From: Escherichia coli
GTDB lineage: Bacteria > Pseudomonadota > Gammaproteobacteria > Enterobacterales > Enterobacteriaceae
NCBI RefSeq assembly: GCF_044324785.1
Contig: NZ_CP172127.1
Direction: 5' to 3' (one strand)
DNA: 64,000 nucleotides
Below the pieces are notes generated by a model. The model was not told the DNA's origin and did no database searches. It saw only the letters and a program-made list of their open reading frames with translations. Positions 53,375 to 64,000 of the stretch are shown in pieces. Made by a program: the position numbers and the translations under genes. How positions within the stretch are numbered: the stretch's first letter is position 1; every line of letters starts with the position of its first letter.

Positions 53375-53941
53375 ATGGCAAGTCAGGCTGAGGTCGCAGC
53401 ACATTTACTGCTATCTGATCGTCGTCTGCGCGATCTTGCAAAACTTCCGGGAGCCCCAGTCCCCCAAGGACGTGGCGATTGGGAACTTGACGCATGGCGC
53501 CATTTTTATATTCGTTATCTCCGGAGCAATAGACGCGACACAACTAGTAATGACGAACCGGAAGCTGGGGACAATTCTCCCGAAAAAAATCGCGAGCAGT
53601 GGTTGAAAAATGAGGAACGGCAGGAGCGAATCCTGATGGCTCGCGTGAAACGCCGCATTCTTGCTAAACGCTACGCGCCAATTGAATTAATCAGCGTATC
53701 TGTATCTCGCGTCGCAGTTGAATTACGTACCCGTGTCGAATCGTGGCCACCACGGTTAAAAAAGGTGTGGCCGGAAATGCCGCAGGAGGCGAGCAGTGTA
53801 TTACGAGAGGAGCTGGCAATAGCCCTGAATGAACTGGCAGACATACGAATCGACTTCAGCGATTACGATGTCAGCGATATCGAACGCGATCTCGACAGGG
53901 TTGAATCCCTTGCGCGTGACGATACCGATGACGGGGGTTGA
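53375..53941 (+). CDS. putative terminase small subunit
   Basis: 188 aa directly upstream of and overlapping the terminase large subunit gene. Confidence 0.5.
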   Translation: MASQAEVAAHLLLSDRRLRDLAKLPGAPVPQGRGDWELDAWRHFYIRYLRSNRRDTTSNDEPEAGDNSPEKNREQWLKNEERQERILMARVKRRILAKRYAPIELISVSVSRVAVELRTRVESWPPRLKKVWPEMPQEASSVLREELAIALNELADIRIDFSDYDVSDIERDLDRVESLARDDTDDGG

Positions 53942-55790
53942 GTGGGCTGATAAACATTTTTATCTTCCCGAAGGCTCAAGCCATATTGCTGGCCACTGGA
54001 CGACTCAGCCGGTCCAGGTAGTGATGTTAAATATGATGACTAACGACGCGATAAAAATCGTGTCTGTTCGCAAATCAGCTCGTCTCGGTTATACAAAAAT
54101 ACTCGTCGCGGCGCTGCTCTATTTCGCTGAGCACAAAAAACGTAGTGCCGTGGTCTATCAGCCTATCGATGACGAATCGGATGGATTTGTCGCCGACGAG
54201 GTTGACCCCGCTATCGCCGAAATGCCGGTGATTCAGAAAATTTTCCCAGACTGGGATAAAAGCAACGAGCGTAACAATCTCCAGCGCAAAGAGATGAGCG
54301 GCGCAATTATTGATTTTCGCGGCGCGAGTACGCCGGGGAATTTTCGTCGACTGACGAAACAGGTTGTCGAAGGTGACGAGGTCGACGGCTGGCCGCTGGA
54401 GGTCGCTAAAAAAGGTAAAGGCGAAGGCTCGCCAATTGAGCTGGCGCTCGTTCGAATTAAGGGCGCAGCATACCCGAAAGCGATTTTTGGTTCGACGCCG
54501 ACCGTTACTGGCAAAAGCCATATAGAAATGTTGGAAGACGCGGCTGATCTGACGTTTCGTTTTTACCTGAAGTGTCCGCATTGTGGCGAGGAGCAGGTCC
54601 TGGTATTTGGTTTCGACGGTATCGAATACGGTCTCAAGTGGGATGACAGCCTGCAGACCAACGAGTCGAAATCGTCGTCCGCGTATTACCAGTGCTGCCA
54701 CTGCCCGGAGCATTTTTACTATCGCGATCTCGAAAAAATGGAGCTCGGGGGGCGCTGGATAGCCGAGGACTGCACCTGGACCCGAGACGGAATCCATTTT
54801 TTTGATCATGACAGTGGCGTCGTTCGCGCGCCGAAACACGCGGCGATCGTGATAAACGCCCTGTATTCACTAAACCTTGATGGATGGGGCGAGATTGTCA
54901 GCGAGTGGCTGAAAGCGAAGGGCGACCCACTCAAAGAAAAAACGTTTCATAACACGACGCTCGGCGAGCTTTGGAGCGACGTGGCCAGCGAGCAGCTGGA
55001 GCACGATATTCTGGTTAATCGCCGGGAAAAATACGCCAGCCAGGTTCCTGACGGTGTTGTTTATATAACCGGCGGCATCGACTCTCAGACGTCCGGGCGC
55101 TACGAGTGTTACGTGTGGGGCTGGGGAGCTGAGGAAGAGTGCTGGCTGATTGATAAAACAATCGTCCTCGGTCGCTACGACGAAGAGGACACGCTGCAGC
55201 GTGTCGACGGAGTGATTCGCAAACAATACCGGCGCAGCGACGGGACCACAATCGGCGTCAGCCGCTGGGCGTGGGATACCGGCGGTATAGATGCGCAGGT
55301 TGTTTATAACCGCTCGCTGAAACTCGGTCCGCTGTGGGTCATTCCAATTAAAGGCGCAAGCTCATACGGCCAGCCAGTCGTAAATATGCCGCGTACACGT
55401 AACGCGAATAAAGTTTATTTGTCGTTAATCGGTACTGACACAGCAAAAGATTTGCTCGCGATGCGCCTGCCACTGGAACCAGACCCAAAATCAGCGACAC
55501 CGGGTGCAATTCATTTTCCAAACGACGACGAAAAATTCGGCACAACAGAGGCAAAACAGCTCGTCTCTGAAGTTCTGATCCCGAAACTCATTAACGGTCG
55601 CGTCGTTTACCGCTGGGACAACCAGGGGCGGCGAAATGAGGCGCTCGACTGCTGGGTATACGGGCTGGCAGCGCTGCGTATCAGTAAAATTCGTTTCCAG
55701 CTCAATCTCGAGACGCTCGCTGAGCAACGGAAAAAATCACAAAACAAACTGTCTCTCGAGGAGATGGCGAGAATGCTCGGAGGGAGCTAA
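53829..55790 (+). CDS. terminase large subunit, lambda gpA-like (start uncertain: 53829, 53868 or 53928)
   Basis: TGVEWADKHFYLP..., Walker A-like region, CPHCGEEQ zinc motif, IPIKGAS and NEALDCWVY resemble lambda gpA. Confidence 0.9.
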   Translation: MNWQTYESTSAITMSAISNAISTGLNPLRVTIPMTGVEWADKHFYLPEGSSHIAGHWTTQPVQVVMLNMMTNDAIKIVSVRKSARLGYTKILVAALLYFAEHKKRSAVVYQPIDDESDGFVADEVDPAIAEMPVIQKIFPDWDKSNERNNLQRKEMSGAIIDFRGASTPGNFRRLTKQVVEGDEVDGWPLEVAKKGKGEGSPIELALVRIKGAAYPKAIFGSTPTVTGKSHIEMLEDAADLTFRFYLKCPHCGEEQVLVFGFDGIEYGLKWDDSLQTNESKSSSAYYQCCHCPEHFYYRDLEKMELGGRWIAEDCTWTRDGIHFFDHDSGVVRAPKHAAIVINALYSLNLDGWGEIVSEWLKAKGDPLKEKTFHNTTLGELWSDVASEQLEHDILVNRREKYASQVPDGVVYITGGIDSQTSGRYECYVWGWGAEEECWLIDKTIVLGRYDEEDTLQRVDGVIRKQYRRSDGTTIGVSRWAWDTGGIDAQVVYNRSLKLGPLWVIPIKGASSYGQPVVNMPRTRNANKVYLSLIGTDTAKDLLAMRLPLEPDPKSATPGAIHFPNDDEKFGTTEAKQLVSEVLIPKLINGRVVYRWDNQGRRNEALDCWVYGLAALRISKIRFQLNLETLAEQRKKSQNKLSLEEMARMLGGS

Positions 55791-56023
55791 TGACCGCGCG
55801 CGAGGTTTTAACAGAACGGCTGCTGGAAGCGGAAATCGCTCTGCACAAATTATTAACGGGTAAATCGACCGTGTCGCTGTCTCACGGCGATTCAGCGGGA
55901 AATAACCGGAGCTATCAGTACTCCCAGGCGAGTATTGAACAGCTCCGAACGTACATTATCGAGCTGAAATCACAGCTCGGTCTGAGTACGGGACGCCGCC
56001 GTCCCGTGGGAGTTCGATTATGA
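55790..56023 (+). CDS. head-tail joining protein, lambda gpW-like
   Basis: 77 aa; resembles gpW (…LHKLLTGK…YIIELKSQLG…RRRP). Confidence 0.7.
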   Translation: MTAREVLTERLLEAEIALHKLLTGKSTVSLSHGDSAGNNRSYQYSQASIEQLRTYIIELKSQLGLSTGRRRPVGVRL

Positions 56024-63277: not shown

Positions 63278-63279
63278 AT

Positions 63280-63621
63280 ATGCTTGGAATGGACCGTAAC
63301 ACTGGTAAACCTTTATCCGGGGTTGACCATATTCGTCAGTCTATCGTTGATATTTTAACGACTCCGCTGGGAACACGTGTAATGCTGCCGGAATATGGAA
63401 GCAAATTATTTGACCTCGTTGATAATCCCACAGATCCATCGCTTGCTATGCGAATAATTATGGAAAGCGCTGGCGCAATAGCACGCTGGGAGCCACGCGT
63501 CAGAATTGACAGAATAAATGTGTTAGCAGTGGATATCGGGAAAATAACAATATTAATTATCGCAACAGATATCGAAACACAACAGCGATTAGAGTTTAAT
63601 AATATGGAGCTGATATTTTGA
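63280..63621 (+). CDS. baseplate protein, P2 gpW-like (gp25-like)
   Basis: 113 aa; SIVDILTTPLGTRVMLPEYGSKLFDLVD typical of GPW/gp25. Confidence 0.8.
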   Translation: MLGMDRNTGKPLSGVDHIRQSIVDILTTPLGTRVMLPEYGSKLFDLVDNPTDPSLAMRIIMESAGAIARWEPRVRIDRINVLAVDIGKITILIIATDIETQQRLEFNNMELIF

Positions 63622-64000
63622 TAACATCAACAGTTCAGAATTCGATAGTGAAAACTATTGATATGAGTCTGCTGCCGCCGCCAGCATTCGTTAAAACCCC
63701 GTTATTTTCAGATGTTAAATCTAAGCTACTGTCAGATCTGCAGATATTATATCCACAATTTAACGCACTCCTGGAGTCAGACCCGGCAGTTAAACTGCTG
63801 GAAATAGTTGCATACAGAGAAATCATTATTACAGCTCGGGTAAATCAGGGGATGTTCGCGGTGTTACTCGCGTTTGCAAAAGGGAGTGACCTCGACCAGA
63901 TTGGCGCTAATTTTGACTGTCTGCGGCTGTTGATAACGCCAGCTAATCCTGACGCAATCCCCCCGACTGAGGCGGTTTACGAGAGTGACGACGAGTATCG
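63618..64000 (+). CDS. baseplate assembly protein, P2 gpJ-like (5' part; runs off window end; TTG/GTG start)
   Basis: KTIDMSLLPPPAFV... aligns with P2 gpJ N-terminus; GGAG RBS before TTG 63618. Confidence 0.7.
   Translation, partial: MITSTVQNSIVKTIDMSLLPPPAFVKTPLFSDVKSKLLSDLQILYPQFNALLESDPAVKLLEIVAYREIIITARVNQGMFAVLLAFAKGSDLDQIGANFDCLRLLITPANPDAIPPTEAVYESDDEY

Follow-up and report, generated by a model that had tools for sequence, protein, structure and literature searches.

Temperate myophages that combine lambda-like head genes with P2-like tail genes have been described from several bacterial hosts. Wolbachia WO and Xylella XfP1/XfP2 are presented, in part of one report (PMC3235987), as carrying lambda-like terminase, portal and capsid genes together with P2-like baseplate and tail genes, and VHML has been described as joining a tail module like that of P2 to a remainder resembling lambda/N15 (PMC10612066). 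The exact wordings "lambda-like head" and "P2-like tail" were found together in no paper when the literature was searched.

The stretch of DNA analysed here (the window; 64,000 nucleotides from the Escherichia coli chromosome) contains a prophage integrated at tRNA-Ser(CGA). Lambda-like terminase, portal and head genes next to P2-like baseplate and tail genes are the combination by which lambda/P2 chimeric temperate myophages are recognised; the window shows it as far as the baseplate genes, and full-length relatives show it with the rest of the tail. By published description, the pairing is the same as in WO, XfP1/XfP2 and VHML; these are from other hosts and only distantly related in sequence. 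Positions 53375-64000 very probably represent the opening ~10.6 kb of a late morphogenesis operon that belongs to a temperate myophage under lambdoid regulation, with a head and neck of lambda type and a contractile tail of P2/R-pyocin type. This reading is carried by homology, gene order and gene coupling. The remainder of the prophage is lambdoid, encoding an integrase, an HTH repressor pair, a DnaB-type helicase, an antiterminator (Phage_antiter_Q), holin and endolysin.

Packaging and head genes

All morphogenesis genes between 53375 and 64000 are encoded on the + strand and closely packed, neighbours overlapping by 1-20 bases or standing no more than 58 bases apart; they run small terminase, A, W, B, C, D, E, FI, FII-like, Z-like, terminator, V, W, J (Table 1). 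All 14 ORFs in the window are open, and their lengths fall within 1-2 residues of those in relatives, except for the two terminase genes, where start annotation varies between records. A promoter scan of 47000-64000 gave 10 sigma-70-like sites against a mean of 15.1 in shuffled sequence; as this is fewer than in shuffled sequence, no internal promoter is proposed.

Table 1. Genes of the morphogenesis operon within the window, with the profile matches (E-values) used for assignment
Feature	Coordinates	Strand	Length	Match
Small terminase subunit	53375..53941	+	188 aa	phrog_57 "terminase small subunit", 1.7e-38
Large terminase, lambda gpA type	53829..55790	+		GpA_ATPase 2.6e-46; GpA_nuclease 1.3e-63
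gpW-type head-tail joining protein	55790..56023	+	77 aa	Pfam gpW 6e-16
Portal protein, lambda gpB family	56020..57594	+	524 aa	Phage_portal_2 9.7e-91
Prohead protease/scaffold, lambda gpC type	57594..58901	+	435 aa	Peptidase_S49 5.8e-37
Head decoration protein, lambda gpD type	58898..59230	+	110 aa	HDPD 9.3e-08; phrog_49 2.5e-22
Major capsid protein, lambda gpE type	59289..60323	+	344 aa	Phage_cap_E 4.3e-60
DNA-packaging chaperone FI	60356..60769	+	137 aa	Packaging_FI 2.6e-10; phrog_92 9e-31
FII-like head-closure/head-tail attachment protein	60766..61146	+	126 aa	Pfam Phage_attach 6e-11
gpZ-like neck/tail-completion protein	61178..61858	+	226 aa	phrog_27 2.6e-41
Tail terminator, R2-pyocin collar (PA0615) family	61855..62391	+	178 aa	profile and fold
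Baseplate hub/spike, P2 gpV type	62372..63277	+	301 aa	Phage_base_V 3.3e-12
Baseplate wedge, P2 gpW/T4 gp25 type	63280..63621	+	113 aa	GPW_gp25 2.4e-16; phrog_43 4.7e-40
Baseplate wedge, P2 gpJ type, 5' part	63618..64000	+	127 codons	phrog_6 4.7e-21

In a preliminary description, the terminase, W, portal, C, D, E and FI had been called lambda-like, and both Pfam and BLASTP bore this out, with identities to the lambda proteins of 35-64%. By BLASTP, the portal is 64% identical to lambda B over 505 aa, followed by the capsid protein (57% to E, E = 2e-149), the protease (55% to C, E = 2e-149), the large terminase (42% to A over 645 aa, E = 3e-167), the decoration protein (38% to D, E = 1e-16), the joining protein (35% to W, E = 4e-9) and FI (35%, E = 1e-5). 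Pfam matches for the portal, C, D and E all exceed the curated cut-offs, and the genes are collinear with those of lambda, the order of head and neck genes (Nu1-A-W-B-C-D-E-FI-FII-Z in lambda) being common to both.

The locus differs from lambda at the start of the packaging block. The small terminase, whose counterpart in ON470624 is likewise annotated as small terminase, gave no Pfam match, including none to Phage_Nu1, and reached just E = 0.023 in BLASTP against lambda Nu1; judged by sequence, it is not detectably Nu1-like. Searching for lambda cosN (GGGCGGCGACCT, allowing up to 2 mismatches) returned chance-level matches only, the nearest being a 12-mer with 2 mismatches, and the cos site is likely to lie in the 372-base gap at 53003-53374. 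For the large terminase, translation may begin at 53928 (620 aa) instead of 53829, because this is the start annotated in relatives and lambda A is clearly matched only from about residue 34 onwards.

The neck and the lambda-to-P2 junction

V, W and J had been taken to follow FI directly; their P2-like character stood up to BLASTP (34-49% identity), Pfam and PDB comparison, but three neck genes at 60766-62391 separate them from FI. These three proteins were assigned through family profiles, with structure prediction in addition for the terminator. The FII-like protein falls in phrog_82 (1.2e-23), the PHROG of lambda FII, and the PHROG of the Z-like protein is also that of lambda gpZ (3.2e-69); Pfam Minor_tail_Z was matched by 3 of 25 relatives of the Z-like protein, at best with 2.1e-12. 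The terminator matched the R2-pyocin collar structure 6u5f at E = 0.0036 with phmmer, and a profile built from 102 members of its family matched 6u5f over the full length at E = 1.1e-34. Its AlphaFold model (pLDDT 91.3) has the pyocin R2 collar as its top fold match (TM 0.66/0.70), followed by the Mu terminator, lambda gpU and T4 gp15.

BLASTP of the three neck proteins against lambda FII, Z and U and P2 L, R and S gave nothing at E ≤ 1 except noise, and phmmer searches of the PDB with the FII-like and Z-like proteins gave nothing meaningful. Alignments of the neck families were not significant by hhalign against single sequences of lambda Z, P2 S, P2 R and lambda U, the best being the terminator against lambda U (E = 7.7e-4, probability 25%, with a weak single-sequence template). 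As these single-sequence templates were too weak, the neck assignments rest on the PHROG, Pfam, PDB-profile and fold evidence.

With three neck genes between FI and V, the switch from lambda-type to P2-type genes is placed where the gpZ-like gene and the terminator overlap by 4 bases (61855-61858). The terminator opens the P2/pyocin-type tail block and holds the position of gpU in lambda. The terminator and V genes in turn overlap by 20 bases; the junction of the head and tail blocks is translationally coupled. No seam is visible in the DNA at 61855-61858, and between the two blocks there is neither an integrase, att site or tRNA nor a non-coding gap. The R2 pyocin of Pseudomonas aeruginosa offers the same arrangement, with the PA0615 collar immediately upstream of the V homologue, as the PA0615-family terminator is upstream of V-W-J in the window. 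Unlike R-type pyocins and other tailocins, the window operon carries a full, open set of head and packaging genes directly upstream. A tailocin was considered as the identity of the element and rejected, since capsid, portal and terminase genes are present in the same operon.

Baseplate genes and the tail beyond the window

V, W and J stand in the order of the P2 tail genes (V-W-J-I-H-G, FI-FII-E-T-U-D, X). V is 34% identical to P2 V (BLASTP, E = 8e-19), with a longer C-terminal part, and in the PDB it matches 3qr8 (P2 gpV; 3.3e-17) and, through its N-terminal domain, 4s37, deposited as "Phage baseplate protein" (5e-13). A GHTHTY motif can be read near its C-terminus. Baseplate W is 37% identical to P2 W (E = 3e-23), and the N-terminal part of J, which starts with TTG at 63618, overlaps the W stop codon and is cut by the window end, is 49% identical to residues 4-124 of P2 J (E = 2e-28). 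The homology tests on V, W and J, whose failure had been named beforehand as a refutation of the hybrid, were thus all passed. Homology to lambda and to P2 supports a modular hybrid, as proposed at the outset, in which packaging, head and neck genes of lambda type adjoin a P2-type baseplate.

Because the window stops 127 codons into J, the sheath and tube are seen only in relatives that are ~95% identical over the stretch shared with it. A whole-prophage comparison found the prophage collinear from 30991 to 64000, save for two replaced segments, with that of E. coli Z0117EC0040, which ends at yodB. There, J is complete (306 aa, 41% identical to P2 J) and is followed by I, an H-like fiber, sheath, tube, assembly protein, tape measure, U, X and D. 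By BLASTP, P2-like matches were obtained for I, the N-terminus of H, FI (the sheath, 36% identical to P2 FI), FII (the tube), U, X and D; for the assembly protein and the tape measure, similarity to P2 E or T was not significant. A lambda-type tail downstream, the other possible refutation, is absent from the Z0117EC0040 prophage, which has the P2-type tail instead, and none of the lambda tail proteins U, V, G, T, H, M, L, K, I and J had a BLASTP match in the window or among the downstream genes of that relative.

The resemblance to P2 does not extend to its head. No window protein gave a BLASTP match to the P2 head proteins Q, P, O, N, M and L or the tail completion proteins R and S, and phrog_65, phrog_26 and phrog_71 (P2 R, S and L) were matched by none. 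Membership of the Peduoviridae was therefore rejected, and the element is placed outside that family. It differs from P2 also in regulation, which looks lambdoid (Q), with no ogr-type activator annotated in a relative.

Relatives, competing readings and assembly

Of 5426 complete E. coli genomes, 453 (8%) carry the module, always on the chromosome, and it also occurs in four deposited phage records, ON470624, ON470604, ON470596 and ON470627 (vB_EcoM-705R4 and siblings). Gene order is identical in vB_EcoM-705R4-type phages, in E. coli prophages of the serU/yodB region and in the window cluster, and ON470624 likewise has a lambdoid Q and lysis genes upstream and a P2-type tail downstream. Over 10.6 kb, nucleotide identity is 93.6% with the phage records and reaches 94.8% with chromosomal prophages, a divergence of ~5-6% from the vB_EcoM-705R4-type relatives. 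The window prophage carries its own DNA in the replication region (34336-37587) and from the lysis genes to the terminase (50087-52589), and differs from the vB_EcoM-705R4-type relatives in an IS3-family insertion in a holin-like gene. vB_EcoM-705R4 is reportedly named just twice, in one CRISPR-Cas paper. The vB_EcoM records are short (20-27 kb) and ON470624 includes a host-like YecA gene, so these records leave the existence of virions unproven.

To assess the age of the arrangement, the surroundings of more distant terminator homologues can be compared. All five examined, with terminators 20-30% identical, are embedded in the string FII/Z/terminator/V/W/J/I, which also occurs in Citrobacter phage Chris1, and a gpA terminase and lambda-family portal are found wherever upstream DNA is available. 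Sharing of this string by distant homologues indicates an old lineage and no recent chimera. Given the coupled junction, the conserved architecture, the presence in 8% of E. coli genomes and the published lambda/P2 chimeras, "chimeric" should imply nothing recent or out of the ordinary; the combination of lambda-type head and P2-type tail is real, ordinary, common in E. coli and already known.

E. coli genomes often hold piled-up prophages and prophage remnants, and the head proteins match only lambda and the baseplate proteins only P2 by BLASTP, as would be expected if a lambda-like remnant abutted a P2-like prophage or tailocin remnant, or if lambda and P2 had recombined very recently. Such an origin is extremely improbable. 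The overlaps of 4 and 20 bases at the junction, free of integrase, att site, tRNA and non-coding gap, speak against adjacent elements, identities of 35-64% to lambda and 34-49% to P2 are much too low for a recent cross, and the arrangement is identical in 453 E. coli genomes and around terminator homologues just 20-30% identical. Two adjacent prophages were rejected on the overlap of the junction genes and the sharing of the arrangement across relatives. It is also very unlikely that V, W and J form a stray baseplate cassette in front of a non-contractile or other tail. The window does end inside J, with sheath and tube beyond it, but the collinear Z0117EC0040 prophage has a full P2-type tail, the window itself encodes a contractile-tail terminator of the collar family, and the Z-like gene is the sole lambda Z-to-J tail homologue detected.

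Whether this copy yields hybrid virions is a separate matter. An IS3-family element at ~47847-49175 splits the first holin-like gene and separates Q from the whole set of late genes, so this copy may not produce particles; the insertion, upstream of the operon, bears on whether it is still inducible, and the prophage end is outside the window. A defective or domesticated copy, tailocin-like or cryptic in the making, nevertheless seems somewhat unlikely, since all 14 morphogenesis ORFs are open with lengths as in relatives (terminase starts excepted), the second holin (Phage_holin_3_7) and the endolysin are intact, the head genes are intact, unlike those of tailocins, and a Q-modified polymerase could read through the IS.

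For a myophage with a lambda-type head and P2-type tail, the following assembly route, its dependence on Q and the contact between the FII-like protein and the terminator are proposed. The Q antiterminator would give a single long late transcript that runs through the lysis genes into the morphogenesis operon. Heads would form by the lambda pathway, in which the portal, the C protease/scaffold and E would build a prohead, the gpA-type terminase would fill it, D would stabilise the shell and W with the FII-like protein would close the portal. Tails would be built independently of the heads, along the P2 pathway and on a V/W/J/I baseplate, and would be capped by the terminator, probably together with the Z-like protein. 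The FII-like protein would then dock on this terminator, which would replace lambda gpU as its partner.

Beyond correct annotation, the significance of the locus is small: the prophage is assigned to a lineage of lambdoid-regulated myophages that is widespread in E. coli, and the gpZ-like neck protein and PA0615-type terminator, both "hypothetical" in the records of relatives, are now named. To our knowledge, the role of the gpZ family in lambda is still poorly defined. It is rather doubtful that the Z-like protein is a structural part of the myovirus neck; were it so, the lineage would be tractable for the study of gpZ-family function and would show one head-closure family adapting to the terminators of both contractile and non-contractile tails. 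For structural studies of head-tail joining, the conserved FII/Z/terminator trio offers a modest starting point. The neck is the only non-textbook part of the cluster, and its components (W and the FII-like connector, the gpZ-family protein and the pyocin-collar-type terminator) are kept together in relatives down to ~20% identity.

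Layout of the morphogenesis operon and its neck

The morphogenesis genes were assigned by Pfam and PHROG scans combined with BLASTP comparison to the lambda (J02459) and P2 (AF063097) proteins themselves. All sizeable family-supported ORFs in 53375-64000 lie on the plus strand, and neighboring genes overlap by 1-20 bases or leave gaps of at most 58 bases; the sole exception is the terminase pair, which overlaps by 113 bases, or by 14 with 53928 as the large terminase start. Match values were far past chance and confirmed the preliminary description of terminase, W, portal, C, D, E and FI as lambda-like and of V, W and J as P2-like. 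The small terminase is not Nu1-like. That description also had the baseplate genes directly succeeding the lambda head genes; the identity of V, W and J held, but FI is not followed by V, as three neck genes intervene.

Prophage features, with strand and supporting matches
Feature	Position	Strand	Support
Integrase, tyrosine-type	26470-27498	-	next after tRNA-Ser(CGA)
HTH repressor	32885-33313	-	
Cro-like protein	33370-33627	+	
DnaB-type helicase	35180-36595		
Antiterminator Q	46903-47574		Phage_antiter_Q 9.4e-39
Holin	49406-49678		
Endolysin	49678-50160		
KilA-N/ORF11CD3 protein	50731-51228	+	lysis-terminase segment
Small ORFs	51918-52187; 52758-53003	opposite to KilA-N/ORF11CD3	lysis-terminase segment
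DUF2158 protein	52202-52420	opposite to KilA-N/ORF11CD3	lysis-terminase segment
Small terminase	53375-53941	+	phrog_57
Large terminase, gpA-type	53829 or 53928 to 55790	+	42% to lambda A, E=3e-167
gpW	55790-56023	+	35% to lambda W
Portal	56020-57594	+	64% to lambda B
S49 protease C	57594-58901	+	55% to lambda C
Decoration protein D	58898-59230	+	38% to lambda D
Capsid E	59289-60323	+	57% to lambda E
FI	60356-60769	+	35% to lambda FI
FII-like protein, 126 aa	60766-61146	+	Phage_attach 6e-11 (Pfam); phrog_82
Z-like protein, 226 aa	61178-61858	+	phrog_27 2.6e-41
Tail terminator, 178 aa	61855-62391	+	phrog_1072, labelled 'unknown function'
P2-type V	62372-63277	+	34% to P2 V, E=8e-19; PDB 3qr8 3.3e-17
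P2-type W	63280-63621	+	37% to P2 W, E=3e-23
P2-type J, first 127 codons	63618-64000	+	49% to P2 J, E=2e-28

The PHROG of the FII-like protein is also that of lambda FII. Lambda gpZ likewise matches the PHROG of the Z-like protein (3.2e-69); the Z-like protein itself gave no match in the Pfam scan, and Minor_tail_Z was found in 3 of its 25 homologues (best 2.1e-12). For the 178-aa protein, phmmer with the single sequence gave a weak full-length match to the R2 pyocin collar PA0615 (6u5f; E=0.0036). An exhaustive HMMER search returned 125 representative clusters of ~170-190 aa, and a profile built from 102 of these representatives matched 6u5f over its full length (E=1.1e-34). In the AlphaFold model (pLDDT 91.3), the nearest fold was the pyocin collar (TM 0.66/0.70), followed by the phage Mu tail terminator, lambda gpU and T4 gp15. 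Profile match and folds together identify this protein as the terminator of a contractile tail.

Judged by homology, the lambda-type block reaches through Z with the lambda order kept (...FI, FII, Z), and the P2/pyocin-type block starts where lambda carries gpU. The module boundary is a 4-base overlap (61855-61858), and the DNA there bears no mark of a seam. The two proteins at the interface, FII-like and Z-like, had no BLASTP match among lambda proteins and are the most diverged from lambda, which would fit, but does not prove, that they have adapted to a new partner. The Z-like and terminator genes (61178-62391) are 99.4% and 97.8% identical to those of L002, a collinear prophage of E. coli Z0117EC0040, and the head genes (53375-61146) 92-96%; this higher identity of the neck suggests local mosaicism or recent exchange among E. 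coli prophages.

GC-rich hairpins that resemble terminators and carry T runs directly follow D (59250-59269) and E (60322-60339), and a hairpin with an 11-bp stem (61143-61168) occupies the gap separating the FII-like from the Z-like gene. The stem of the latter is identical in two close relatives, a single loop base differs in one, and the stem thus offers no covariation. The hairpins could possibly act in mRNA stabilization or dosage control within an antiterminated operon.

Age of the lambda/P2 pairing

An apparent chimera of this kind might consist of two adjacent elements or be a recent recombinant. The context of five terminator homologues, each 20-30% identical to the terminator here, was examined, and all five lay within the string Phage_attach (FII-like)/~200-aa protein/terminator/Phage_base_V/GPW_gp25/Baseplate_J/Tail_P2_I, the ~200-aa protein matching Minor_tail_Z at one locus. 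Each locus with available upstream DNA carried a gpA-type terminase and a lambda-family portal. At two of the five, a fused protease-capsid gene of the Phage_capsid family replaces C/D/E, and a third has a similar fusion (CLP_protease and Phage_capsid_4). In Citrobacter phage Chris1, whose record is a complete circular genome of 45 kb, the same combination occurs with the tail gene order rearranged. Conservation around the distant terminators and in Chris1, and likewise identities of just 34-64% to lambda and P2, argue that the pairing of a lambda-type packaging/neck set with a P2-type tail is old and stably inherited. Two adjacent elements and a recent recombinant are both excluded by this conserved arrangement, by the low identities and by the coupling of genes across the junction.

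A tailocin was ruled out by the intact head genes; BLASTP found neither P2 head genes nor R/S, which excludes membership of the Peduoviridae. The Wolbachia WO phages and Xylella XfP1/XfP2 are published lambda/P2 chimeras (PMC3235987), and for VHML-type phages a P2-like tail combined with a lambda/N15-like genome has been described (PMC10612066). The proposal of a modular lambda/P2 hybrid is supported in a descriptive sense, by head/neck and baseplate homologies, for what is a common temperate phage type, already deposited and already described. The conserved FII/Z/collar-terminator neck is a modest lead, as a model for lambda-type connectors joining contractile tails.

Relatives and proposed assembly

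The window ends within J. Its nearest relatives are prophages of 453 of 5426 complete E. coli genomes, all chromosomal, with identity up to 94.8%, and four database entries named 'Escherichia phage vB_EcoM-...' at 93.6% identity. L002 is collinear with 30991-64000 except for two replaced segments, and continues after J with I, fiber, sheath, tube, tail assembly protein, a 546-aa tape-measure-sized protein, U, X and D, then yodB. BLASTP pairs each of J, I, the N-terminal part of the fiber, sheath, tube, U, X and D of L002 with its P2 counterpart, and none of them with a lambda tail protein. A lambda-type tail downstream, which would have refuted the hybrid reading, is thus absent from the relatives, and a P2-type tail is the probable continuation here.

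The 'complete genome' ON470624.1 (vB_EcoM-705R4) is 27 kb and its sibling records 20 kb; it opens with the host-like gene YecA (1-666) and is without integrase and replication genes. These records resemble prophage segments, partial or predicted, more than full virion genomes.

With gene homologies, order and coupling established, analogy with lambda and P2 suggests how assembly and regulation would proceed. A Q-antiterminated late transcript would cross the lysis genes and then the morphogenesis operon; the annotation of L002 lists no ogr-type activator, and a promoter scan gave no excess of internal promoters. Head formation would follow the lambda pathway (portal, C protease/scaffold, E), and the gpA-type terminase would package DNA from a cos site, which a search for lambda cosN did not locate. 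D would stabilize the head, and W and the FII-like protein would close the portal. A separate pathway would build the tails from a V/W/J/I baseplate and finish with the 178-aa terminator as cap, close to which the Z-like protein would sit; the FII-like protein would dock on this terminator, which takes the place of gpU.

State of this copy, cargo and integration site

The integrase, repressor/Cro-like pair, helicase, Q, holin and endolysin make the regulatory and early part of the prophage lambdoid. An IS3-family element (~47847-49175; ORFs 47891-48301 and 48259-49164; rve, rve_3 and HTH_21 domains), which recurs in many E. coli genomes as copies of at least 99% identity, interrupts the lysis cassette and splits its first holin-like gene after '...HRFWKQV'; L002 has an uninterrupted 127-aa version (16024-16407). 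With Q on one side of the element and every late gene on the other, the insertion may have a polar effect on the morphogenesis genes. This separation and the broken holin-like gene would fit a defective copy, which we consider rather unlikely, as the 14 morphogenesis ORFs are open and of expected length.

The segment between lysis genes and terminase (50087-52589) is absent from L002 and looks like a moron or cargo insertion. Cargo genes also lie between the replication region and Q (39448-40371, minus strand, and 41399-44002), including an LprI-family (lysozyme inhibitor) protein (Pfam 4.3e-07) and, from L002 collinearity and annotation, a GIY-YIG nuclease and ImmA/IrrE metallopeptidase pair; these may be accessory or defense genes. 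In the early-left region, a 737-aa ORF without a Pfam family (28671-30884, minus strand) adjoins a Sipho_Gp157 protein (28105-28674).

Positions 1-25000 belong to the E. coli chromosome, match strain N3 at 99.5% identity and include amn, shiA and an Rhs element; sequence from the integrase onward is prophage. The prophage sits beside tRNA-Ser(CGA) (26295-26384), with tRNA-Asn at 25228-25303; its opposite end adjoins yodB in L002. In the host part, GC falls sharply from 0.60 (6001-8000) to 0.40 (8001-12000), coinciding with an RHS element core protein annotation in matching genomes.
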